Positions 6,401 to 62,469 of a stretch of DNA of 64,000 bases are shown piece after piece. The notes under the pieces were generated by a model that was not told where the DNA came from, did no database searches, and saw only the letters and a list, made by a program, of their open reading frames with translations. Position 1 is the first letter of the stretch. Every line of letters starts with the position of its first letter. Location: assembly GCA_024137785.1 (NCBI GenBank), contig JAHRHZ010000069.1, forward strand, positions 27,942,132-28,006,131, given 5' to 3'. The DNA is from Ginglymostoma cirratum (Eukaryota). The position numbers were made by a program, and so were the translations under genes.

Positions 6401-9400
6401 TTTAGAAAGGTGGTATCCAAGGATCTTTGGTGAATTTCTGCTGCTACTGTCTAAAAGCTAGAGGCAGCATGTACCAGCTGTTAGTGGTGAAGGACTGAAG
6501 GTGCACAGATGTGGTACCTATCAAGCTGGCTGCTGTGCTTTAAAATTGTCAGGCTTTGAGTGTTGAAGTTCATTCATCCAGACAGGTCAGGGTACCCCAA
6601 ACTGACTTATGCCAGGGACAGACTCAGTCATAACTTGACCGAGTCTGGCTACAAGGCAGGTCAGGAGCAAGAGTATTTTATATGGCTAGCTCAGTTCTGT
6701 TGCAGGTTGTGCTTGTGTAGCATCAAGGAGCTTATGCTTAGATTCTCTTATTTGAGATTGTTATTGCTTGACATTTGAACTGTAGTGTTTTCGTAACCCA
6801 CAAGTCTTATTGTCTAGGTCTTGCTAGACTTAGACACTCACTACTCCTATCAAAGACAAGTCCATAAAGGTAGTCTCCCCTTTGGGGGATTGGTACCACT
6901 ATTTAACTAGACAATAAACTAAGAACATGGGCATCCTCCCTGTCTAAGAGGGATCATGGCACAAATATCGAGCAAAGCAAGGAAGTGACCTAGACTTTAA
7001 GTTGCAACAATTGAACCAAACAGATTTTAACATTAACAAATATCATAGTTGGTAGAACCATGTTAGTGTCTGACATAATTACATTTGCACTAAAAGCAAT
7101 TTTCTAACATCTGAAAATCTCTGCAAACCTGGTGACTTGTAAAATAGCAGTGAAGTACCAATTTCATGCCCTAGGCCACTCAGCAGCATAAGTTCAGTTG
7201 ACTGGAGAAAAAGCAAAAAATTTACCCAAAGTTGCGGAACACCAAAAGCAGGGCTTTAACCTAAAAATAGTTAAGTTTTTTTGAAGGGTCCGACCCAAAA
7301 CATCAACTTTCTTGCTCCTCTGATGCTGCCTGGCCTGTTGTGGTGTTGCTCCAGCTCCCTACTTAGGCTATTAAAAATGGACTTTGACCAGACCAATTAC
7401 AACCAGGATAACAAATATTTGCCTAAGCAGTTGGCTAGGATGGTTAATGAAGTTTTGGGTTTAAAAAGATATCACATGAACGTCCTTAAATATTACAAGC
7501 CATCTCGGATGTGTCAGTGCTCACACAGAAACAAGTTGTAAAATTCATGACAGATGCAGTATTTGTTACCTGCTTTAGGTAAGCAAATCACCAAAGTATT
7601 TTAGGAACACAGGCTGACAGCTGCCCAGTAAACTACAGCCCAATTTCAGGTTGGATTTCAGATGTTTTCAAATATGCCTAACTAAAAAGTCTGATCTGAC
7701 ATTGAGAGAATGGAGAATTATCATTCATGTCTATCTTCCACAATGAGGCATTCAAGAAATGGAAACTAGTCCATAGCTCCAGGATCAAGTGTTTATGTTA
7801 CATTAATGGCATGGACATGGTGTCAGGCTATTGGATGCAGTTGGAAGACTACTGAAGTGTTAAGTGGCAGATTAATTTAATTTTCAGGCTTCAGAGTAGA
7901 CAATAACTTGGAGCGCAGTTCAAGTGAACGTACGTCACCTGCACAGAGTTCAAAATACCTGAAGTTTGATATTTTTCTCCTCTTTTTGAAAGTGGCTTTA
8001 CCACTTTATAGCAGGCACAAAAGCACTGAAATACTAGGGAGTGGTTTTTCCATCCTTGCCCACAAGATTGTTCAGTCCAGTGGCAGACCAACAGCAGTAT
8101 CCTCACTCAAGCCAACACACTGGGCCAGTCTTGTATCCTTTTACCTACAGGTGCCTGACTAAGGCCTTTGCTGTCTTTGTTGTAGTAGGAGAGTCAAGAT
8201 AGTGGAAACACTATAGGGACGTATTCAAAGCACTGGAGGCAAGAAAGCATTCTGGATACAGTCCATGGTTTGGAGAGCAGCCAGAAGTGGCAATGGTTTA
8301 TTCAAAGGCAGCTTTGAACACTGTCAGGATCAGAAGCACATAGTGAAGGGTAGAGATTGCCCAAACTCAACTCATCTACTCAAGATGTCAGCAGCTGGTG
8401 CTGGACAGGAGTTTGCAAAGCACAAACTGGACTTCTGACATTGCAACCCATCAAAAAACTGGAGTTGAAGGCTCAAGCGGCTGCCTTGACTGGCACTTAC
8501 CCGATCAGGATAGAAGGAACTGGATGCAGGTTGAATGGCGGCCATGAAGGGACTATCCACAATGTCCTCATCATCACACAACACATGCACTGCATATTCA
8601 CCAGGCTCAGTTGGCCAATAGCGTACATCACAGGATCCATCACTTTTATCGTCACATTCAATCTTTGCTTGAGAGGGACCCTCTACTGCAAAACCTATGA
8701 AATAACGTTTGCATTAATACCTTCCAACCTTTTCAGGTTTAAAGTTTGATTTCAAAAACTTACTTGTAGTTGAATTCTAAAGCTTTCATGTCAATGAAAA
8801 GTTAAAAATTTGGTTCATCTACAAGTGAGCTATACCTGTTTCAATCAACTTAGGATATTCTGGTTTTAAAAACCAAGTCATTTTTGTCCCACCTCAGCAA
8901 CAACGTCCATGTGCCTTTTAAAAAGGCAAAGTGTATTTGACAAGCATGAAACAGTTAGTAGTTAGCAAGTTAACATGACTTCTGTAAAGTTTCTGAAGCA
9001 AGTTAATCCAGCAACTGGAGGTACTGTCTAATCTATCATTTAAAGTCAAAACCTTTTGCCCAAAGACAAAACCAGACAAACAGAAGCAAGCCTTACCTAA
9101 CACCCCAACGTCTGTTCCAATGGTTTCTACTACAAAGTCTGCTGACTTTCCAACAACTCCTCCATCAAGGCCAGGACCCCAGGCACGTATTTTTTGAGGA
9201 CCTGCTTCAGGTCCAATCTGAATTTCAAAGGGACTAAAAGAGAAAAAAGGAGAAGTTCAGCATATTCAGGCTAAGACATGGATTGCAAAGTTCTAGTCTG
9301 AACTGGCATTGAACAACAAGGAATTTTTTTTAAGTGGCTACCCTGTAACTAGTAGAATGCCACATGGACCAGTGCTGGGGCAGTTTATATTTTAGTGACA

Positions 9401-18400: not shown

Positions 18401-21400
18401 TGGGTTGATGAGAGCAGGACTTTTATTTAGAGTATTCCAGTAGAATTTAGACTAGTTAAGTAGCTAGTCCAAAGGGGTGTTTCAGTAATTTGGTACTTTG
18501 TTCATTGTTGGGTCAAATAAGTTGCTTTGTTACTTGTAACATGGAGATTTTTCTTTGAACCACTCAAATTAGAAGGGGGGGTGGGGAAGGGAGGACATGC
18601 TTGTGGGTCGTTTCAGTCGGGGGAGGGGGGGTGTCGTCATTAGAGGGGACCCTCTACTCTGGTCATAAAAAAAAGGAGAGATTGGGGCTCGTGTTTAAGT
18701 TCAGTTAGAGGGGTTTTCCCCATTCCCCCTCCATAAAAACACAAACTGAGGTGATACAACAGCCTAAATAGCTAGCTGCACATGCCCAAGGTAGAAATAT
18801 AGTCTTCACTTCAGCCTTCCAAAAAAGTAGACCTTAAAAAATTAACCTTAACTTCACATAGGAAGTTCTCAAGGCATACCAAAATAGGACATTACATTGT
18901 AGAGCATAGCTTTTCATATTTACCCAGGTTACAAGTTTTTTACCTGTGGAACTCCAAGCCAGTCATCTGCTTGTTGCATAGCTTCACGTGCATTATCCAC
19001 TGGTTTGGCTGCATCCCAGATCTCCCAGTCAGGGCACAAACCTGAGTCACATTAAAAGGCAGTGATATACTCCAATGTATGGTACAAATGCACTTTGGTA
19101 ATTATCAAAACATTTGATAAAAAGGGACCGAGATGAAGTGTTCCAAAAAGATAGCAAGCCCAGGATCTTGATAACACAGCCCAGAAGGTTCTTGAAGAGA
19201 TCTGTAGCTCAGATGTGAATGCTGTGGTTGGTTCATTAGCGCAGACTTTTCATTACGCTGCTGGGTAACATCGCTGCAAACTCTGATGAAGCACTGTTGT
19301 TTTCCTGCCTGGTATCTTTTGCACTTGGCTACCTCACTTTTCTTCAGAGTGCTATGTATAGGGTCTAATTCTGTGTTGATGGATGGTCTCCTTAGTGGTG
19401 AACCAGGCCTCTACAAGTTCCCATGGATGTCTGTTTGGCCTGTCCTAGGATCGGGATGTTGTCCCAATTGATCAGATAAAGGGAGAACCACCTGTTCAAT
19501 CGGAACCTCTGGCCTGTCCTAACGGACAAGCATGGGACTATGTACAGGCTTGGATTGCCACGAAGGCAGCCATCCATCACCACAGCTGTAGACTGACCCC
19601 ACACACCACTGCGAAGAACACAAGTGAGGTAACAAAGTCCAACAGAGACCAGGAGTTTAAATACCAGGCACAAAAACAGCACATCTGGAGGCTGCAGTGA
19701 TGTTGCCCAGCAGAGAAGTGAAACACCTGTAAACTAACAAACCAGCTTGGTGAGTGAACCAATCACATCCCTTAGACTAGGAGGAAACCCGAATGGCCCT
19801 CCCCATCCTCAGATCTTGGGAAATGATTTTAGAGTGGAAAAGTGTGCCAAAATTAGAACAGGGACACAATCCAAGAACAGCCCTTACCATGGGGTGAGGT
19901 AATACACAGAATCCGTATTGTTTAGGAAGAGGCCATTTGACCTAGTGAATCCACATTAACCCTTTAAAGAGCACCCCACCCTGAATTACCCTCTCTAGTT
20001 TTGCATTTACCCAGGCTCATCCTAAATTGGATTAGTTAATCTTAGCCTACACACCTGATTACAAGCAATTTAGCATGACCAAGCCAAACTTTTGTCTTGT
20101 GTACTATGGGAGGAAACTGGAGCACCTGGTGGAAACCCATGCAAACAGCAAAAACCATGCACACTCCACATACAGTTGCCCAGGGCTAGAACTGGACAGT
20201 ACTTGGCAGAGTTAGTGCTACTAACCACTGAGTCACTGTGCGAAATATCCATCTGAAAATAGGTTGATTAGTCCTAGCTTCAAAGCTGACACTGACATGC
20301 TCTTGACATTTACACTGGTTTGATTTTACATTAGGTGAAGGTGCCAGTCAACCTAAGTCCAGAGACTTTCCACTTTAGGGGGAAGGATGGGAAGTCAAGT
20401 TGCTATGCAGCTTTTCAGGATCACAAGAGTTGAGGCTCCAAACTAGTCGGAGGCCATCTGTTCCAGATTTCCAATGTGCACTTTAGTTGATGCCCAATGA
20501 TACTCACCTGGAGCACAGCTGTCAACCAGAGCACCCAAGGCTCTTCCATCTTTCCAGTCATTGCTGAAGTTGGTGATTGGCAAATCAGGCAGTTTATTCT
20601 GAATCCATCCCAATAGCCGCTGTTTGGGTGTCTGATTCTTGGCATCATCAGCTCCTTCATCATCCCAAACTGGCATGGAAATAGAGTAGTGAAGAATCAA
20701 AGTCCATATGAGCCCTAGAATGAGCTTCAGATTCCCATCTAAAATGGCTTTGCTGTCTGAAAAGCAAACAAAGTTAAAATTAAAGTCAAATAAAAAGATA
20801 ACAACTTGGGTCAACTTCATGAAGTTTTGTCAGAATATAAAAAGGTGCTTCTCCCACCCATTGGGTTTAAACTCATTCACATTCAAGTGGTGTGGAAGTA
20901 ACAGAAAATTGAAGTTAAGATAGACAGATAAATGCCATAGTAAAAAAGGGTGGCTTGACAGGGCATTATGTGCCAGCCATGTTGGAGTGGGGTTAATCAG
21001 TTCATTCGAGACATAGGCTTTAAAAACACTTCTCAATTTAAATTTTAGCAGTTAAAAATAGAATGCAGTGTTTAAAAAGTATGGTGAAATGTGAACTGAA
21101 ATCAGAATTAGTTACCAGTCTAGTAACAATCACAAAAATGTTAGACTTGTTCGACCTCTTCCATGAAATGATTTGGTATCATCCTCAATGCTGAACTATT
21201 TCCTCCATGGCACTCACCATAAACAGGTGGCCTAAGCTGCCTTTGACATTGCACATGCTAATGATGGAGTACAGTACATTTGTTAGAGAAACATTTCAAT
21301 GCACAAACACCATGCAGTTACAGCAGTTGACCCTGTTAATCTAATCATTTCCACACAAGTTCCTTCCTCAAATGAAGGATGACCAATCGTGCTCAATTAG

Positions 21401-24400
21401 GAAAAAAAAGTTTGTCACCTGGAGGCAAAAGCACAATTGCCAAATAACTCAATTGGAACATAACTTAACAGTACAGAATATTTGTCTGAAACTACTTTAT
21501 ACAGAAATTAGTAATCACTCAATTGTCACAAAATCTCTTTAAAATCCCATATCTTGTACAACCAATTGTAAGAAGTTCTTGGGGGATCAGCACAGGTTAA
21601 CAATGCTTTACAGAAAACTGCAAAGTGCCAGGCCAATTTAGACCATCAAAACAATGCAAGTTTTGAATAGTACTCATGCCAAGTTTGGAATGTGGCAATA
21701 GTTGTATCCAAAACCAACAGGTCTTCAGAACTGAGAGTGTAATAAGGTGTGGCTTTTATAGAGGTGTATATTTTAGCCTTGAGCAGAAAAAAGGTCCATC
21801 TGAGGCGACCTTTGAATTTAAGTTTCTGCATGCCTTGGTAATATTACTGAGATTCTCAAAAAAGAATCATGCCATCTTAAGGCCACTAAAGTTTGACAGC
21901 TGGAAACTTGGTCCTACTAATCCAAAAAAGGTTTAGTTCAAGGAATGCAGTATTTGCACACACTTGTAAACAATGTTCAATTCCTTAATATCATGTTATC
22001 TACTCCCAGTTGGTGTTTTATGGGGAGAACAGTATTGCCACATTAGGACAAAAATACTCAGTTGGGAGGCACACTAGTGGTCACAGTCAAATTCCGAAAT
22101 TTAGGAAACTGGAGTAAAGACCAAGAAGGTAGTGTTATACCTCAACCTGTGCTTAAGAAACCAAGCCCCACAATTCCCAAAGTCAAGTGTTAATTCTTTT
22201 TTAAAGAGGGACATGCAAAATTCCCCACTTTGACTTTTAAACCCAGGTGACAAACCAGAACATTTTGGGTAAAGGGCAAAAGATTAAGACAACTGTTCAG
22301 TGGTCCTTGGCTGTATGGTTAAACAGGTTTAGTGATGAGAAAAGACCAATGGTGTTCTACAGATACTCGTTTGGTTTGCTGAACAAACCAGGAAGTGAGC
22401 TGGATGGAGATGCTTAACCAGGTAAGCAAAAGCAAGGGAAACCACTTACCTTCGAGGGGTTTGTCAAAGTCACTCAATTGTTTAGTTACTGGGAGTCAGT
22501 TGACAGGAGGCCTTAGTCATCAGTAACTGACTGTTTGCAGACTAGTGACAAGAGCAGTTTGTAAACACCATGGGATTCCAGCTTGCCTACAAAACTAAGA
22601 TTCACTGCTGCTTGTTCAAGCAGCAATACAGATTACACTTAAATGGCTGTTAAGCCAGTAACCTAAACAAGTGTGACAATCACTTAGTGAGAATAAAAAA
22701 GGTACTGCAGATGCTGGAGGATCAGAGATAACAAGCATGGTGCTGGGTGAACACAGGCCAAGCAGCATCATAGGAGCAGGAAAACTTGATGTTTCAGGCC
22801 TAAACCGAAGGGTCTAGGCCCGAAACGTCAAGTTTTCCTGCTCCTATGATGCTGCTTGGCCTGCTGTGTTCATCCAGCCCCATGCTTGTTATCTCTTGAC
22901 AATCACTTCAGTTTTCATTTCAACCCACAAGTCAAAAGCTTACGGTCTACAGCTTTTAGACTGAATTCTGATAAAGGGAATGAGCTCCTCAAGGCAGTCA
23001 GTTTGCCAATTGTAGAGATCAGAGAGGGCATTAAGTCAGCAAACCAAAATTTGATTAGAATGCAAGTCTGCTTACAAAGAGACTGCCCTTCCTTTAAAAT
23101 GAAAGAAGTGTGCTACTGATCAGTGCCAGCACAGCAAATTGTTTCAGCATTAATGCATAGTAGCAGTTTCTCAAAGCATGTGCTGTGAAGTGGTTGAGGA
23201 AGGAGTTTCAGGTTACTGAAAAATCTGGTGCAAAGTGACATTTCAGAACCATGGATAGAAAGCTTATGGACTGGACAGCCAGTGGTACTTTTACAGAATC
23301 ATTTAAACCTACGCAAGTTTTAAATAAAATGGTGGAATCTCTCATCAAGAGGAAGGAGGCTTATGTAAAGATGAGATGTGAAGGCTCAGTTAGGGCACTT
23401 AATAGTTACAAGTTAGCTCTCTTTAGGTCCTTCCTGGCTAAGAAGAGCCAGGAGGGGACATGATCCTACCTGCCAAAGACCAAGGAAAACCCTAAAGCTT
23501 TCTATAGGTATGTTAGGAATAAAAGAAAGAATGACTAAAGATAGATAAGGGCCAGTCAAGGACAGTAGTGGGAAGTTGTGCGTGGAGTCCGAAGAGATAG
23601 GCGAGGCGCTAAATGAATATTTTTCGTCAGTATTCACACAGGAAAAAGACATTGCTGTCGAGGAGAATACTGAGATACAGGCTATTAGACTAGACGGGAT
23701 TGAGGTTCATAAGGAGGTGGTGTTAGCAATCCTGGAAAGTGTGAAAATAGATAAATCCCCTGGGTCGGATGAGATTTATCCTTGGATTCTCGGGAAAGCC
23801 AGGGAGGAGATTGCAGAGCCTTTGGCTTTGATCTTTGTGTCGTCATTGTCTACAGGAATAGTGCCAGAAGACTGGAGGATAGCAAATGTCCCCTTGTTCA
23901 AGAAGGGGAGTACAGACAACCCTGGTAATTATAGACCAGTGAGCCTTACTTCGGTTGTGGGTAAAGTGTTGGAAAGGATTATAAGAGAGAGGATTTATCA
24001 TCTAGAAAGGAATAATTTGATTAGGGATAGTCAACACTAATGGTTTTGTAAAGGGTAGGTCGTGCCTCACACACCTTATTGCGTTCTTTGAGAAGGTGAC
24101 CAAACAGGTGGGTGATGGTAAAGCAGTTGATGTGGTGCATATGGATTTCAGTAAAGCATTTGATAAGGTTCCCCACGGTAGGCTATTGCAGAAAATACAG
24201 AGGCATGGGATTGAGGGTGATTTAGTGGTTTGGATCAGAAATTGGCTAGCTGTAAGAAGACAGAGGGTGGTGGTTGATGGGAAATGTTCATCCTGGAGTT
24301 CAGTTACTGGTGGTGTACCGCAAGGATCTGTTTTGGGGCCACTGCTGTTTGTCATTTTTATAAGTGACCTGGATGAGGGCGTAGAAGGATGGGTTAGTAA

Positions 24401-48400: not shown

Positions 48401-50152
48401 TACAACATCAGGAAGAATAAAAACAGCATGGCTGGTAATTTGAGGCAACATCGAAGTTAGATTTAAAACTGAGTCTACTCTAATCTAATACAGAAAGTAG
48501 ATAGTTTTGCAGCAATCATGGTATGGGTCAGCTTATTCATGGTTTTTTAAAAAAAACTTGAAGTGTACACCCACCTGTTGGTATCATTTTATCTAACCTC
48601 CAACTCTTTAAGAAGTGCAACTTACTGAAAAAGTTCAGTTGGACAATGGACATTTGCCATTTGCAGAGAGTCACCCAATTTTGTAATATAAAACCTAACA
48701 CTAGGCACCCAGTTGACCAAGCAGCAGATTGGAGCATCAGGTCCTTGATTAACGGCATAGATCAATCATTGACCATGAATTTAAACAAACAGGTCACTCA
48801 AGTTTTCAATGTCACTGTTTAGATGGCCACTTTCCAAATCACACCCTCCAGCTAATATTTAACCAAATCTTGACTCTAAAAAGCCAGTCCTTTTAAGAAA
48901 AGGAGTGAAGGGACTAAAGTTCAAATGCGATTGAACAAAAGCTTGTCACCCAAACGACAGCGAGATTATCCAAACACTAATGGATCAAAGATTATTTTTA
49001 CACGTTAGATATATTGAAATGAGGGGTTAGTAGTAGTAGTCGTCGTCGTCAGGGAAGGGTTGCAAACGTTCGTTTTAAAAAAATTCAGAAGGCGAAGCAG
49101 ATTAATTCAAATAGAGCGAGGCTGTAAAAGTGGGTTCAGGCAGAAAGGTGAGCGTTTCGCATTCCTCGTAGGAAGTGTCTGCACCTGAAGGTACCACACC
49201 CTACTCTAATAGATGGCTATACGACCCAAAAGAGTGAACCAGATTAGTCCGGATTTAAGAAACGGTGCTCCTACCTTCCCGATAACAAGTAGATTTTAAA
49301 AACCAACGAATTCAACTCGGTAAAGCAAAACAAACAAGTGACAACTGAGATTTACAAGGTCAACGGAATATAAAGAACAATAGAGTTTGGCAGCTGGTCA
49401 TTTCAAATCTTTTATAATGAACACATTCAGATGTTAGTGCCTCTGAGATTGTAGCCCCAGAAATAAGTGATAAGCCGACGTGTCGGGAAAGCGCAGAAAG
49501 TGACAAGTGGTTTACTGACCCAGTTTTAAATTCCACATTATAAAGGCGCTGGCGTGTAGAGAGGCTGCAATAGCTCGCAAGCATGCAACTTTTGGAGGAT
49601 CAGGAAAAAAGTTGGAGGCTGATCACCCAGGGATCAAAATCCCTGGTGGTTTCTTTTCTATTTTAAGGAAGGAGTATCTACCAGATGGAACAAGGGGGCT
49701 GACGAGCAATATTTGGCTTTAGCATAAAAAGTCAACGAGTTTAAATGTAAACTTTTTAAAAGGATCATGGAGAAAAGAGGTTGCTAGAAATGCGTGGACT
49801 CACCAATAGACACCAGCTTGATGTTCTCCCTCTCGAGGAACTCAAGCGCCACAGACACGTTCTCCAGCTGCATTTGCTTGAAGGTGGGTCTCTGGTGATA
49901 CTTGCGGTACATTTTCTTCTGGCTGAGAACCTCGAGCAGGGCGATGAGCCGCAGCCCGTCCGCCAAGTCGGTCTGCAGGTTGTGGATGCGCTTGTTGACG
50001 CATTTTAGGTGCTCGTTGCACCAACGAGTGAAGGTGTTCTGCTGGATCCGTTTCCAGGGCGCATCCTCGGCCAGATCCTTCTCGGTGGCCGGCATCTCGA
50101 CGTCTTTGTCCCCAGGCTGCTCAGGCTCTCTCCTCTGCACATGCGTACTCAT
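334..50152 (-). CDS. FLNB: Filamin-B gene, 5' portion (19 coding exons, ~975 aa; continues beyond window start)
   Basis: The spliced translation is open across 19 GT-AG exons (349,249,98,148,119,78,163,198,138,133,137,194,114,144,124,161,91,170,118 nt). FLNB-type residues: [53 protein letters not shown]. From recall, FLNA has HNQRPTF, PLRPK, IKCAPGV and EPSHDASK. Confidence 0.93.
582..751 (-). CDS. FLNB: FLNB coding exon 18
   Basis: (G)[56 protein letters not shown]; 170 nt. Confidence 0.95.
3022..3142 (+). mobile_element. Penelope-like terminal repeat fragment (family A)
   Basis: Homologous to 1-125; possible TSD GTACTC(G/A)GA at 3013-3021 and 3143-3151. Confidence 0.75.
3386..3476 (-). 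CDS. FLNB: FLNB coding exon 17
   Basis: [30 protein letters not shown]; 91 nt; preceding intron only 87 nt. Confidence 0.95.
3564..3724 (-). CDS. FLNB: FLNB coding exon 16
   Basis: (G)[53 protein letters not shown]; donor GTTTGT; 161 nt. Confidence 0.95.
4475..4598 (-). CDS. FLNB: FLNB coding exon 15
   Basis: [41 protein letters not shown]; 124 nt. Confidence 0.95.
5028..5171 (-). CDS. FLNB: FLNB coding exon 14
   Basis: [48 protein letters not shown]; 144 nt. Confidence 0.95.
5510..5623 (-). CDS. FLNB: FLNB coding exon 13
   Basis: [38 protein letters not shown]; 114 nt. Confidence 0.95.
7281..7345 (+). mobile_element. Penelope-like terminal repeat fragment (family A-related)
   Basis: TGAAGGGTCCGACCCAAAACATCAACTTTCTTGCTCCTCTGATGCTGCCTGGCCTG. 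Confidence 0.65.
8501..8694 (-). CDS. FLNB: FLNB coding exon 12
   Basis: (G)[64 protein letters not shown]; 194 nt. Confidence 0.95.
9097..9233 (-). CDS. FLNB: FLNB coding exon 11
   Basis: (S)[45 protein letters not shown]; 137 nt. Confidence 0.95.
9325..10235 (+). mobile_element. Heavily deleted CR1-clade LINE fragment
   Basis: Residual CR1 motifs: TGTAACTAGTAGAATGCCACATGGACCAGTGCTGGGG; TATACTCATTGGAACTTAAG; tail CTTCTACTCCATCTTATG. Confidence 0.6.
10816..10948 (-). CDS. FLNB: FLNB coding exon 10
   Basis: (K)[43 protein letters not shown]; CAG/AAG tandem acceptor; 133 nt. Confidence 0.93.
11731..11868 (-). CDS. FLNB: FLNB coding exon 9
   Basis: (A)[45 protein letters not shown]; 138 nt. 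Confidence 0.95.
12015..12562 (-). mobile_element. Penelope-like retroelement 3' fragment (GIY-YIG remnant plus terminal repeat)
   Basis: Minus strand reads [13 protein letters not shown] (YIGET at 12539-12553), then FVEHLHSV and [12 protein letters not shown] remnants, a pyrimidine-rich UTR, and the family A terminal repeat. Confidence 0.8.
14304..14501 (-). CDS. FLNB: FLNB coding exon 8
   Basis: (G)[65 protein letters not shown]; AAG acceptor; 198 nt. Confidence 0.94.
15028..15190 (-). CDS. FLNB: FLNB coding exon 7
   Basis: [54 protein letters not shown]; 163 nt. Confidence 0.95.
15679..15756 (-). CDS. FLNB: FLNB coding exon 6
   Basis: [26 protein letters not shown]; CAG acceptor, GTAAGT donor; 78 nt. 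Confidence 0.95.
16120..16385 (-). mobile_element. Degraded HE1-like SINE
   Basis: ACCTGCACATCTTTGGACTGTGGGAGAAAACTGGAGCA..TGCTAACCACT on plus. Confidence 0.75.
16933..17051 (-). CDS. FLNB: FLNB coding exon 5 (Ig repeat 1)
   Basis: (G)[39 protein letters not shown]; 119 nt. Confidence 0.95.
17171..17332. mobile_element. Head-to-head pair of Penelope-like terminal repeats (family B)
   Basis: Left arm (minus) CTGAAGGAAGTCTGTCAACCCAAAATGTTAAC; right arm (plus) TTGAGGAGAGTCACTGGGCCCAAAACACTAAC. Confidence 0.55.
17434..17581 (-). CDS. FLNB: FLNB coding exon 4
   Basis: [49 protein letters not shown]; 148 nt. Confidence 0.96.
17819..18670. mobile_element. Possible solo LTR, degraded
   Basis: Starts TGTTACAA and ends ..GGTCATAAAA (near-inverted termini); ~850 bp; no internal coding remnant seen. 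Confidence 0.25.
18944..19041 (-). CDS. FLNB: FLNB coding exon 3 (CH2)
   Basis: (G)[32 protein letters not shown]; 98 nt; not in ORF track. Confidence 0.95.
19188..19770. mobile_element. Old Penelope-like element (family C) with inverted halves
   Basis: Minus strand encodes [21 protein letters not shown], matching the 60092-60531 element; terminal repeats in opposite orientation at both ends. Confidence 0.7.
19905..20240 (-). mobile_element. Degraded HE1-like SINE
   Basis: GCAATTTAGCATG..GGGAGGAAACTGGAGCACCTGGTGGAAACCCATGCA..CTAACCACTGAGTCAC on plus. Confidence 0.75.
20508..20756 (-). CDS. FLNB: FLNB coding exon 2 (CH1/CH2)
   Basis: (D)[30 protein letters not shown]...LVDSCAP; ttttCAG acceptor, GTGAGT donor; 249 nt. 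Confidence 0.96.
22686..22896. mobile_element. Head-to-head Penelope-like terminal repeats (family A) with 12-bp TSD
   Basis: ~80-bp inverted arms around 22807-22809; TGACAATCACTT at 22674-22685 and 22897-22908. Confidence 0.85.
23330..25293 (+). mobile_element. CR1-clade LINE, 5'-truncated, RT ORF2 broken by stops and indels
   Basis: [57 protein letters not shown]; 3' tail CTGTACTGCGCTGTAATCTATGTTCTA. Confidence 0.92.
29718..29797 (-). mobile_element. Penelope-like terminal repeat fragment (family A)
   Basis: GATAACAAGG..GCTGGATGAACACAGCAGGCCAAG..CTGATGTTTTGGGTCTAGACCC on plus. Confidence 0.7.
33015..33130 (+). mobile_element. Penelope-like terminal repeat fragment (family A)
   Basis: CTGAAGGATGGTCTAGGCCTGAAACATC..GATGCTGCCTGGCC..ATCTGCAGTTCCTACT. 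Confidence 0.7.
33818..33929. repeat. Homopolymer runs (poly-G, then ~27-nt poly-A)
   Basis: Direct reading; other long G runs at ~2514-2532 and ~36523-36547. Confidence 0.9.
34265..34965 (-). mobile_element. Degraded CR1-clade LINE fragment
   Basis: Reverse-orientation CR1 3' motifs (TCCATGCCAACCAG, CCTCATGATTTTA, CAACATCCTTG, CCTACCATTAACT). Confidence 0.6.
35193..35341. mobile_element. Head-to-head Penelope-like terminal repeats (family A) with degenerate 19-bp TSD
   Basis: Inverted arms; TGAGACAGTTGACATAACT at 35174-35192 vs TGAAACAGTTTACACAACT at 35342-35360. Confidence 0.75.
35443..35535 (-). mobile_element. Penelope-like terminal repeat fragment (family A)
   Basis: GAGATAGTAGGTACTGCTGATGCTGGAG..GCTGGATGAACACAGCAGG on plus. 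Confidence 0.7.
38560..39545 (+). mobile_element. Degraded LINE (CR1/L2 clade) 3' portion
   Basis: CCTCAGGATAGTGTCCTAGGCC (PQxSVLG); tail GGGCAATAGATGCTGGC..GCCCATGTC shared with 55060-55610, 58270-58630 and (minus) 6170-6580. Confidence 0.6.
39890..40320 (-). mobile_element. Degraded CR1-like LINE tail
   Basis: GCCATTTGGGCCTGCTCTGCCATTCAATATGATCATGG; related tails at ~13525-13740, ~26560-26600 and ~51070-51300. Confidence 0.55.
40620..40900. promoter_or_regulatory. Candidate intron-1 enhancer (AP-1 x3, NF-E2/ARE, CArG)
   Basis: TGAGTCA 40629-40635; TGACTCAGCA 40637-40646; CCAATATAGG 40837-40846; TGACTCA 40875-40881. Confidence 0.4.
46420..46855 (+). mobile_element. Rex1/Babar-like LINE 3' fragment
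   Basis: Remnant peptides [47 protein letters not shown]. Confidence 0.7.
48045..48140 (+). mobile_element. Penelope-like terminal repeat fragment (family B)
   Basis: GAAGGGGTCACTGGACCTAAAGAGTTGACTGCTTTCTCTCCACTGATGCTG..CTGCTGAGTTTT. Confidence 0.5.
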
Positions 50153-50830
50153 TGCTGCCGCCTCCTCCTATTTAACTCGTTCTCCGTTTCCGGGTTGGCA
50201 GCTACTGGCTGCAGCTTTCCCTGGAGCCTCCCTGCTGGCGAACGGAGAGTAACTCTTAACCAATAAGTTCAACACAGACAGAAGGCAAGCGCGCACAAAA
50301 TCTGAAGCCGTGCGTCTGCTGCACAAACCCAATGACACGCTTCTGCTCGCATTTTAAACATTCTCTCTTCACATAAACCAGGATTTAGTTTGGGTTCGAC
50401 CCGAACGATTGCCGGTCGGTGGTTTTCGCCGGGGTACCGGAGAGACTTGCATCTCTTGTACGGATCGCAGAGAAATGTCATTGGTAGTCAAAGGTGCGTG
50501 TGTGCGCACATCATCTATTCCCTTTCTTTCACATTGACAACTCAGTCTTAACTACCGCCGACACACTCTGCAGATGACCACTCCAAGGACCTGGACAGCA
50601 AATGCTGCTGAGCTTTATGGGGCCTCAGACCCAATTCCCGCCCAGTGCTGCCCTCACATCTAGTCCCAGAAACTGGAACTGGACTGTAAACAAAAGAGAG
50701 AAGGAATGCTGTCGGCACCATCCCCCCTGCTGGCATTGAACCCACTACAATGTCCTTCACTAAGCAACTGAACACTGAAACAACAAACTCGGACGTACGT
50801 GGATCCCCACTACACACATCACGCATTTAT
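48930..50830. promoter_or_regulatory. CpG island / FLNB promoter region
   Basis: Abrupt rise in CpG density relative to the CpG-poor gene body. CCAAT boxes at 50260-50264, 50329-50333 and 50480-50484 (ATTGG). ETS-like CCGGAAA (minus) at 50187-50193 and GCGCGCAC near 50289. The TSS cannot be determined. Confidence 0.75.
49804..50152 (-). CDS. FLNB: FLNB coding exon 1 (CH1 domain)
   Basis: MSTHVQ...[31 protein letters not shown]...IKLVSI; ATG context GCAGCA-ATG; donor G|GTGAGT. Confidence 0.95.
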
Positions 50831-59625: not shown

Positions 59626-59981
59626 TCATAGAATCCCAACAGTGTGGAAACAGGCCATTTGGCCAACAAGTCCCAACCAACCTTCGAAGAGCATTCCAAA
59701 CCAGTCCCATCTCCATACTCTTTCCCCGTAACCCTGCATTTCTCATGACTAACACACCTAACCTATACATCCCTGAATACTATGGGCCAATTTAGCATGA
59801 CCAATCCACCTGACCACACATCTCTGCACTGTGGGAGGAAACCAGAGCACATGAAGGAAACCCACATGGACACGGGGAACACATGCAGACTCCACACAGA
59901 CAGTCACCCGAGGGTGGAATCGAACCTGAGTTTCTGGCGCTGTGAGGCACCAGTGCTGACCACTGAGCCACCATGCTGCCC
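59626..59981 (-). mobile_element. HE1-like V-SINE
   Basis: Reverse complement of A box, B box and core; tail TCATAGAATCCC on plus. Confidence 0.88.
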
Positions 59982-60091
59982 TCAAGTGCAACGACTTTGG
60001 ATGTTTTCCTGTATTGAAGGTGCTATAAATACACATGTTTTTATAGGAAGATTGCTTCAAGTTTCACATGAACCAAAATTAAATGTCCAAT

Positions 60092-60531
60092 GTTGAGGTC
60101 GGTTGGCTCACCGAGCTGGTTTCTTGTTTCGTTACCATGCTGGGTAACATCCTCAGTGCAGCAACCGATGAAGCAATATGAACACCAACTGGCTACAAAA
60201 ATACATGACCAATACTCACTCATCTCAATCCACATGGACAAGGAGAACCATGACTTTGACTGGGACAACACCAAAATCCTGGGTCAAGCTAGGCAGAGAC
60301 AGGCACAAGAATTCCTAGAAGCCTGGCACTCCACAAAGCATGCTATTAATAAACACATTGAACTCGACCCTATATACATTCCACTACAAAGGAAAACCAA
60401 AGGCTTCATCGGAGGCTGCATTGAGGATGTTACCCAGCATGGTAACGAAATGTCTGCGAAACAAGAAACCAGCTTGGCGAGCCTACCAACCTTAACACCC
60501 ACAACGCGAACTACAAATCTACTCCAAAACC
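60092..60531 (+). mobile_element. 5'-truncated Penelope-like element (family C): inverted terminal repeat, GIY-YIG C-terminal fragment, terminal repeat; 13-bp TSD
   Basis: EHQLATKIHDQYSLISIHMDKENHDFDWDNTKILGQ..EFLEAWHS..INKHIELDPIY; inverted arms 60091-60174 / 60403-60497; TTAAATGTCCAAT at 60079-60091 and 60532-60544. Confidence 0.88.
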
Positions 60532-62469
60532 TTAAATGTCCAATTTACCTGACCTTTGTCATAATTAGATATTTCTCATGAATATTACCACTGGGTGAAA
60601 TACCTATAAGACTTCTACGATTATAAATTAAAATATTAAGAATTGCATCAATGAAAAACATGTAAAAAAGCATGTAAAAAGTAAGGAATTCTAAAAAAAT
60701 GAAAGTAAATTAGCATTCCACTTGGCATTGGTTACCAGAAAATACAGTTTTAGGAAGGAAATTAGGTAGAATATTCATGCAAATGGGTTGATGGAAGCAA
60801 ACTCAATGGTAATTTTCAAAAGCAAATTTGATCTGTACTTGAAAAGGAAAATTTTGCAATGCTATGGAGAAAGACCAAGGGAGAGGGTTTAATTGGATGG
60901 TTCTTTCAAAATTCTGGCACAGTAACAATGGGCAGAATGACTTCCTTCTGCGCTGTGAGATTCTGAAGTGTTTCTATATGATTAGCATTGCACTTCAAAG
61001 AATTTCTGTTCACTCCCAGTATCTTATTTAAAACCACAATTGCTCAGTTGCTAGCAAATACATCAGGGAGTCTGAGGAAAGGATGGCACACATTAGGACA
61101 CAAGATGTTACAAGATTCTTTGTATGTCTGTGTAGGTTGATTTGGAAACTTAGAAACAATCCATTCCATGGTTTCAATCTTTTAACAACACTTAGAGGGG
61201 ACTGGGTACAATAGCAGATCCTTACAATGTTGAATATATTAAACCAATGGAATTGTACTTTAGGGCCCTACGTTTGAACACTGTCGAGACAGATGGTAAT
61301 ATGATTGTTAATACACAAAAATGAAACAAGTCAGGGCATGCTCCTGTCACAAAATTGACTGCTTAGATGCATTCACTGATTGGGCAACTTGACTCCGAGG
61401 GCCTGTAGAAATGACATATAGGCACTAGCATTAATGCAGCTAAGCTTGAGGAATACAACCAGAACAAAGTAGAATCAACCCTAACTGCACCTAAATTACA
61501 TTGCAAATAATCTGAGAATGCTGCTGGTGTTGGTAGGAAAGATGTGTTATTTTCCCCACAAAACATTACATACCTTAATAATCCCAATCTTCACATACAT
61601 CAAATATATTTACAGTAGCTAAAAATGCTAACACTGGAAAAGGATAGGCAATACACCACTACTTTTTAATGGTCTGATAGATTTGTGTCCAGAATCTAAT
61701 TGGCCTCAGATTTACTACCCATATCTGTAGTGAATGAACCTCTTGTTTTGTATGTAGAAAGAAGAGTAGGTCACTTCTCTACATGTAGAAGAGTGTGGCT
61801 GATCTGTATTTTAATTCTTTTCACGTGCTTTGGCTTTGTATCTTGGTAAACTTGTACCTAGCAAAAAGCTAACAAGTGTAAATAATTCATTAAAGCGTCC
61901 ACTGCTTTTTGCTAAAAAGTTCTTCAGATAAGGCAAGATAGAAATGTGGAACTGTTTTGTATCCTCTTTCCTGATTTGTGGATTTGGATTTTAAGGTTAT
62001 GTCACCTGGCTTATGTAAGGACTGCTCCTGGATGCCTACTGCTTGACTCAAGAGCAAAATTAATAGGAACTTGTGAACATTGTCTGGAGGGTAATGTCAG
62101 ATACAAGGTGAATTAATATATTCAAAAGATGAGAAAAGCATACTTTACAGGTTTAAAAGTGGGTGTCTGTTATCAGATACCCTGACAACTTTTTCCTCGT
62201 ATTTCAGGGACATTGTAACTCCTGTCACCATCCAGAAAGACATCAGAAACAGGTGCATGAGGTAGAATGCTCAATGTGGGCCAAATGTGCACATGTAACC
62301 GTTTCCAATTGACTGTAGGAATTAATGTTAATTTGAAGTAAGAACACGCCTGAAGCAATTCAGGTTCATTCAGGAGATGGTGTTGCCAGAGGCCTTATAC
62401 AGTGGGATTATAATTCGAGGCCATTTCCCAGCATATTTCCATTGATAAAACCAAGAGTTGACAAAGAGG

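Follow-up and report, generated by a model that had tools for sequence, protein, structure and literature searches.

The insert at positions 60079–60544 of the stretch of Ginglymostoma cirratum DNA analysed here (64,000 nucleotides of contig JAHRHZ010000069.1, hereafter the window) carries two hammerhead motifs on opposite strands, both defective, which raises the question of whether they form a working ribozyme pair or are the debris of a mobile element. According to our analysis, the insert is very probably a 5'-truncated, head-to-head insertion of a Penelope/Poseidon-type element, likely produced in one event; its two hammerheads were probably disrupted separately, and both are predicted inactive (Table 1). 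The locus is an ordinary dead insertion, one of thousands of dead copies, and its features are each already described across four papers (PMC4209133, PMC3846280, PMC8557442 and PMC11167929).

Table 1. Features of the insert, in window coordinates
Feature	Positions	Strand	Basis
Left 13-nt direct repeat (target-site duplication, ~10–13 bp)	60079..60091	.	exact match to 60532..60544
Short inverted arm, a pseudo-LTR without tail; runs from −24, where it is 5'-truncated, to +70 (counted from the ORF start)	60091..60174	-	
Hammerhead remnant; 5' half of the core, helix II and GAAA retained, cleavage site gone through an 11-nt deletion	60127..60159	-	
GIY-YIG endonuclease reading frame, C-terminal part, without the GIY-YIG motif	60176..60398	+	
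Seam of an internal deletion (~61–65 nt relative to family copies)	60399..60403	+	alignment with family copies
Minimal type-I hammerhead; C3 to U (60421), helix III palindrome lost in CpG fashion (60451)	60418..60457	+	
Codons 1–35 of the element ORF, repeated; ATG where helix II begins, a single stop codon here	60427..60531	+	
AC-rich tail, 34 nt, on the plus arm only	60498..60531	+	
Right 13-nt direct repeat	60532..60544	.	

The insert is 466 nt long and is bounded by an exact 13-nt direct repeat (60079–60091 and 60532–60544), while its arms are inverted copies of each other, 94% complementary between 60127–60174 and 60403–60450, and 88% complementary between 60091–60131 and 60457–60497. The original prediction had proposed a Penelope insertion with a 13-bp target-site duplication, but had overlooked both the 34-nt tail (60498–60531) and the plus-arm deletion of ~61–65 nt that sits immediately upstream of 60403. 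The repeat is indeed present at its full length, but the duplication proper reads as ~10–13 bp, because the repeat opens with two to three letters that are also those with which the element itself continues, TTA coming after the tail in 26 of 35 family copies. We considered a target origin for this TTA and rejected it, since the repeat begins 2–3 nt past the tail in five of the seven resolvable pairs, so that the letters are mostly element-derived. Between the arms, the translation of 60177–60398 is 89% identical (65/73 aa) to residues 570–642 of the protein of a family copy (L048), i.e., to the C-terminal end of its endonuclease. The endonuclease fragment that had been read there is thus upheld by its relatives, but the GIY-YIG motif itself is absent, and a Pfam search with the fragment alone returned a chance match only, without recognising an endonuclease.

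One detail of the junctions deserves mention, namely that the 5' end of the short arm (60174) and the end of the plus-arm deletion (60403) both lie at position −24 from the ATG, a coincidence that could reflect a stall of the reverse transcriptase followed by a template jump, or chance. Intron splicing was examined as a source of the plus-arm deletion and discarded: the breakpoints differ between the window and two other loci (L002 and L003), and none corresponds to a clean GT–AG removal.

A first pass over the genome (4.36 Gb) brought up 7,256 candidates, 40 of which went on to scoring, so the insert is not a chance assembly; a second search, with a reverse transcriptase (RT) stretch, returned 2,978 candidates. 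At one locus (L048:829–2841, minus strand), a single open reading frame of 671 aa encodes an RT (Pfam RVT_1, 4.8e-11) followed by a C-terminal GIY-YIG domain, which is below the Pfam cut-off (0.79 in this copy and 0.013 in L013) and whose motif is visible by eye; a sequence search of the PDB with the 671-aa protein gave no match. Among Penelope-like elements, the Penelope/Poseidon clade is recognised by a CCHH motif in the endonuclease and by an RT–endonuclease linker devoid of the CX2-5CxxC zinc finger (PMC8557442). Since the 130 residues before the GIY-YIG motif of our family hold no such zinc finger and the C-x2-C and H-x5-H pairs of the CCHH motif are present, its sequence points to a Penelope/Poseidon-type element, which may be undescribed by name. 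Together with the target duplication and the one-sided tail, this high-copy family with RT and C-terminal GIY-YIG bears out the proposed Penelope insertion. Furthermore, in the L046 copy, the tail continues straight into the ORF and the N-terminal peptide is encoded once more at the 3' end, meaning that the pseudo-LTR repeats the start of the ORF; helix II begins at the ATG (60427 in the window), and the hammerhead doubles as the first codons.

The state of the motif across the family was assessed on 136 copies (145 motif matches in 100 loci, minus seven duplicates and two that did not span the motif). The family motif is that of a minimal type-I hammerhead, with a CUGANGA and GAAA-NUH core, helices I and II, an extra base after A9 and a palindromic helix III. 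A strict hammerhead descriptor matches 26 of the copies, for instance that at L011:2317–2367 (plus strand); another 26 retain the core but lack the palindrome, and the remaining 84 do not qualify. The motif that had been reconstructed by combining the two window arms, including its extra nucleotide after A9, therefore occurs in natural copies. At the scale of the genome, exact matches to the core pattern number 5,543, vs. 160 for a reversed-pattern control. The family falls into three subfamilies, which have the core in common and are told apart by N7, by the loop and by one pair of helix II. In 27 aligned sequences (30 core-pattern loci minus L101, L125 and L126), 88.9% of the cells at paired positions are paired, the invariance of the core being built in by the pattern that selected them, and the helix II pair reads C-G instead of U-A, changed on both sides, in 5/27, probably through one inherited event. 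Over the 136 copies, CpG sites depart from the majority letter in 194/854 cells, non-CpG core sites in 22/711 and other non-core sites in 257/4,881; selection on the core within copies was not inferred from these counts, in which copies found by similarity are pooled and subfamily structure is mixed in.

Three core-pattern matches (L101:1501–1537, G000:C4:2174131 and C4:6519155) have a different helix II, ending in GGCCC, and, judged by this motif, belong to at least one further hammerhead family in the genome. The window itself holds, at 19200–19770, another inverted Penelope insertion, older and in a more advanced state of decay; it belongs to a sister subfamily (N7 = U), and each of its two motifs lacks three core nucleotides and is broken.

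Neither motif of the insert has a complete catalytic core. As had been noticed beforehand, the plus copy reads U at the C3 position (60421), with G8 retained, and U at 60451, where the helix III palindrome is broken; the loss of the palindrome can be attributed to CpG sites being the main source of decay in the family. The claim that the minus copy lost its cleavage site between CGAAA repeats is equally borne out by the alignment of the arms, in which the GUC site and the helix I 3' strand fall within a gap of 11 nt between the two repeats. U at C3 recurs in 9/136 family copies, while the 11-nt deletion is found in 1/136, i.e., in the minus arm of the window only. An Rfam scan of the window returned no hammerhead match at E up to 10. 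The original prediction had also called the two defects complementary, and this part does not hold: the lesions are separate, they lie on opposite strands, and the locus is predicted to form a fold-back; their occurrence across the family copies makes independent damage, not design, the likely explanation.

If the defects were complementary by design, the RNA of the minus arm would act as the enzyme strand on that of the plus arm, which retains the cleavage site. The inventory of parts would allow it, with the 5' half of the core, helix II and GAAA on the minus arm and the GUC and the helix I 3' strand on the plus arm, and dimers are the presumed active form of minimal hammerheads (PMC4209133). 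However, such a split ribozyme would need transcripts from both strands, its pairing in trans, which can be drawn, would have to compete with the complementarity of these transcripts along their whole length, and it would exploit a deletion confined to a single family copy. In the isolated arms, helix II is predicted with a probability of 0.94–0.98 (0.94–0.97 for the plus arm). For the whole-insert transcript, the prediction is a long hairpin (−180.7 kcal/mol, z −13.9), the hairpins of the two strands reaching −181 and −203 kcal/mol, and the probability of helix II drops to 0.00 on either strand. We consequently regard a split ribozyme as extremely unlikely and retain independent decay of two hammerheads.

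Whether the intact motifs of the family still serve as ribozymes is a separate matter. In the five intact natural copies that were tried, the best dimer fold is predicted to be favoured over the double-hammerhead fold by 8–26 kcal/mol, which would argue against a strong ribozyme even in intact copies. Minimal metazoan hammerheads cleave weakly (PMC4209133), and the motif of the Anolis Poseidon element cleaves with the help of protein, cleavage being unnecessary for insertion in vitro (PMC11167929). All these points would also suit a motif retained solely as code for the first ten residues of the protein, its ribozyme function being gone, as would the position of the ATG at the start of helix II and the retention of the peptide in a trematode protein (see below). 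Yet most of CUGANGA is located upstream of the ATG, with variation at N7, the U-A to C-G exchange kept helix II paired (even if it is probably a single event), and the Anolis motif does cleave when assisted, so that a purely coding role appears unlikely to us. In the parent element, the motif would instead be a weak ribozyme, assisted by dimer formation or by protein, and would at the same time supply the opening codons of the ORF.

The way in which such insertions form can be approached through the 39 inverted pairs found in 96 loci (the 100 loci minus four duplicates). The tail is on exactly one arm in 34 of them, on neither in five and on both in none, and flanking repeats of 11–17 nt occur in 24/39 pairs (7 nt in two more), vs. 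0/37 in shifted controls. The 3' ends of the arms cluster near +70 and +104 from the ATG, i.e., 34 nt apart, and the window insert has one arm of each kind. We considered a fixed 5' end for the short arms as well and rejected it, the starts of 26 arms being spread over 22 positions (−122 to +46) in a sample picked by endonuclease or RT similarity.

In the mechanism that we propose, the endonuclease of the element would make staggered cuts ~10–13 bp apart in AT-rich DNA, and the RT would prime one cDNA per cut, at two internal sites of the element RNA located 34 nt apart. Both cDNAs would run through the hammerhead cleavage site, which implies that the template RNA was uncut, then stop early and join head to head. 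The motifs would have been disrupted by subsequent point changes, by decay at CpG sites and by a deletion at microhomology, though this deletion could also date from the insertion itself. The single RT start on each side is the step that we infer here; in vitro, the Anolis Poseidon element uses two internal RT starts bracketing the tail, cuts both strands and uses uncut RNA (PMC11167929).

Alternatively, the inverted arm might arise by fold-back or self-priming on the first cDNA or on an antisense RNA, rather than by a second priming at the other cut, and self-priming on an antisense template has been proposed for inverted structures of this kind (Arkhipova 2013, PMC3846280). The agreement of the arms at subfamily-diagnostic letters (38/42 in 14 pairs, vs. 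54% in shuffles, p 0.0002) would fit one arm being copied from the other, but three of these 14 pairs disagree, either arm may be the longer one and either may bear the tail, the arms end at different fixed points and the window junction has no palindrome. This origin is in our opinion rather improbable compared with priming at both cuts. The pairs whose arms differ at diagnostic letters (L004, L005 and L010) suggest either the use of different template RNAs in one insertion or later mutation.

A last possibility is that the 466-nt unit is a non-autonomous mini-element or a retrozyme, copied as a whole. It does have inverted ends and a target duplication, and retrozymes are reported to derive from Penelope ends in a 2026 preprint (bioRxiv 10.64898/2026.07.22.740005), which also describes retrozymes in its one cartilaginous fish, as well as Poseidon and Neptune elements across vertebrate classes. 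But the junctions of the window insert recur in none of the other 39 scored matches, there is no tandem array and both motifs are broken. Moreover, non-LTR retrozymes, as that preprint defines them, are arrayed in tandem and carry an intact hammerhead in two or more successive units, unlike this single inverted insertion. Copying as a unit is thus very unlikely, and a one-off insertion primed at both cuts remains our preferred reading.

The comparison with described systems goes in the same direction. Minimal hammerheads with an extra base after A9, and pairs on opposite strands 100–700 bp apart, were described by Cervera and De la Pena (2014, PMC4209133), the portions of which considered here name no cartilaginous fish (its supplements may list shark families); in contrast, both motifs of our insert are broken. 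An adjacent inverted 5'-truncated copy, a one-sided tail of 30–40 nt, duplication of the target and a pseudo-LTR containing the first codons are found here as in the elements of PMC3846280 and PMC8557442 (Craig 2021), except that the duplications cited for the rotifer measure 8–10 bp, vs. 11–17 nt in our pairs, of which 2–3 nt are perhaps element-derived. A similar layout is that of the Anolis carolinensis Poseidon element PAc (Frangieh 2024, PMC11167929), a likeness of organisation: the ORF starts where helix II does, the cut site falls 26 nt after the start codon (28 here), the outer RT start is at +111–118 (~+104 here), an AC-rich tail lies between the two RT starts and the RT precedes the GIY-YIG domain. 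The family offers a good natural record of Penelope insertion: its arms terminate at two fixed 3' positions, separated by 34 nt and almost always divided between the two sides, that match the two RT start sites determined in vitro for PAc (PMC11167929), and its plentiful intact hammerheads provide material for studying the role of the ribozyme.

Outside the sharks, the nearest named relatives of the family come from parasitic flatworms. Among the best 120 of 1,030 protein matches, all the named ones come from sharks or flatworms, and the same is true of the best 120 of 377 shorter matches. The proteins concerned, which are unnamed gene models, belong to carpet sharks (Chiloscyllium and Stegostoma) and to parasitic flatworms (Clonorchis, Opisthorchis, Dicrocoelium, Schistosoma and Sparganum/Spirometra). 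Over the RT core, the family is 66–70% identical to the shark proteins, 56–60% to those of trematodes and 48–52% to those of cestodes; among 19 longer matches, identity reaches 57% for Opisthorchis, 39% for a goby protein and 31–35% for two pseudoscorpion proteins. A Dicrocoelium protein (P0005) begins with a sequence to which the hammerhead-encoded N-terminal peptide aligns, and the next 110 residues after it are 50% identical (P0005 residues 1–120 vs. L046:2949–3281). In RT-core trees, computed from 30 and 19 hand-picked matches (three long-branch or duplicate sequences being omitted from the second), the sharks group with the trematodes and two unnamed sequences (93/92). A clade uniting sharks and goby is rejected (p-AU 8e-5), while a clade of the named flatworms is not (p-AU 0.053), both clades having been chosen after the first trees were seen and the sampling being thin (a word-based search, many Sparganum gene models and one teleost sequence).

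These results raise the tentative, on balance doubtful, possibility of an old horizontal transfer, by which a hammerhead Penelope lineage would have moved between parasitic flatworms and sharks, with the ribozyme dual-coded with the first ten residues in both hosts. The same pattern would be expected from paralogous Penelope lineages that were lost patchily. No paper on a flatworm–shark Penelope link was found in the literature searched (subscription journals and Repbase lay outside this search), and the portions of PMC6155905 and PMC5055719 that were available do not mention one. A transfer, if true, would add a case in cartilaginous fishes and mean that a ribozyme and its overlapping reading frame were kept together across two phyla.

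Regarding the neighbourhood of the insert, the minus strand of the window contains exons of a filamin-like gene (483–947, 8375–9256, 20446–20829 and 49787–50167), with two calponin-homology stretches and filamin repeats, and the Penelope insert lies ~10 kb upstream of its first calponin-homology exon. Just upstream of the insert is a SINE-like repeat (59750–59975), which may resemble the tRNA-derived SINEs of sharks. A frameshifted reverse transcriptase fragment (23549–24473; Pfam RVT_1, 1.8e-16) is likely a LINE remnant. Finally, an imperfect hairpin is present at 35216–35301, where the Rfam scan gave weak matches to microRNA families, far below the cut-offs.
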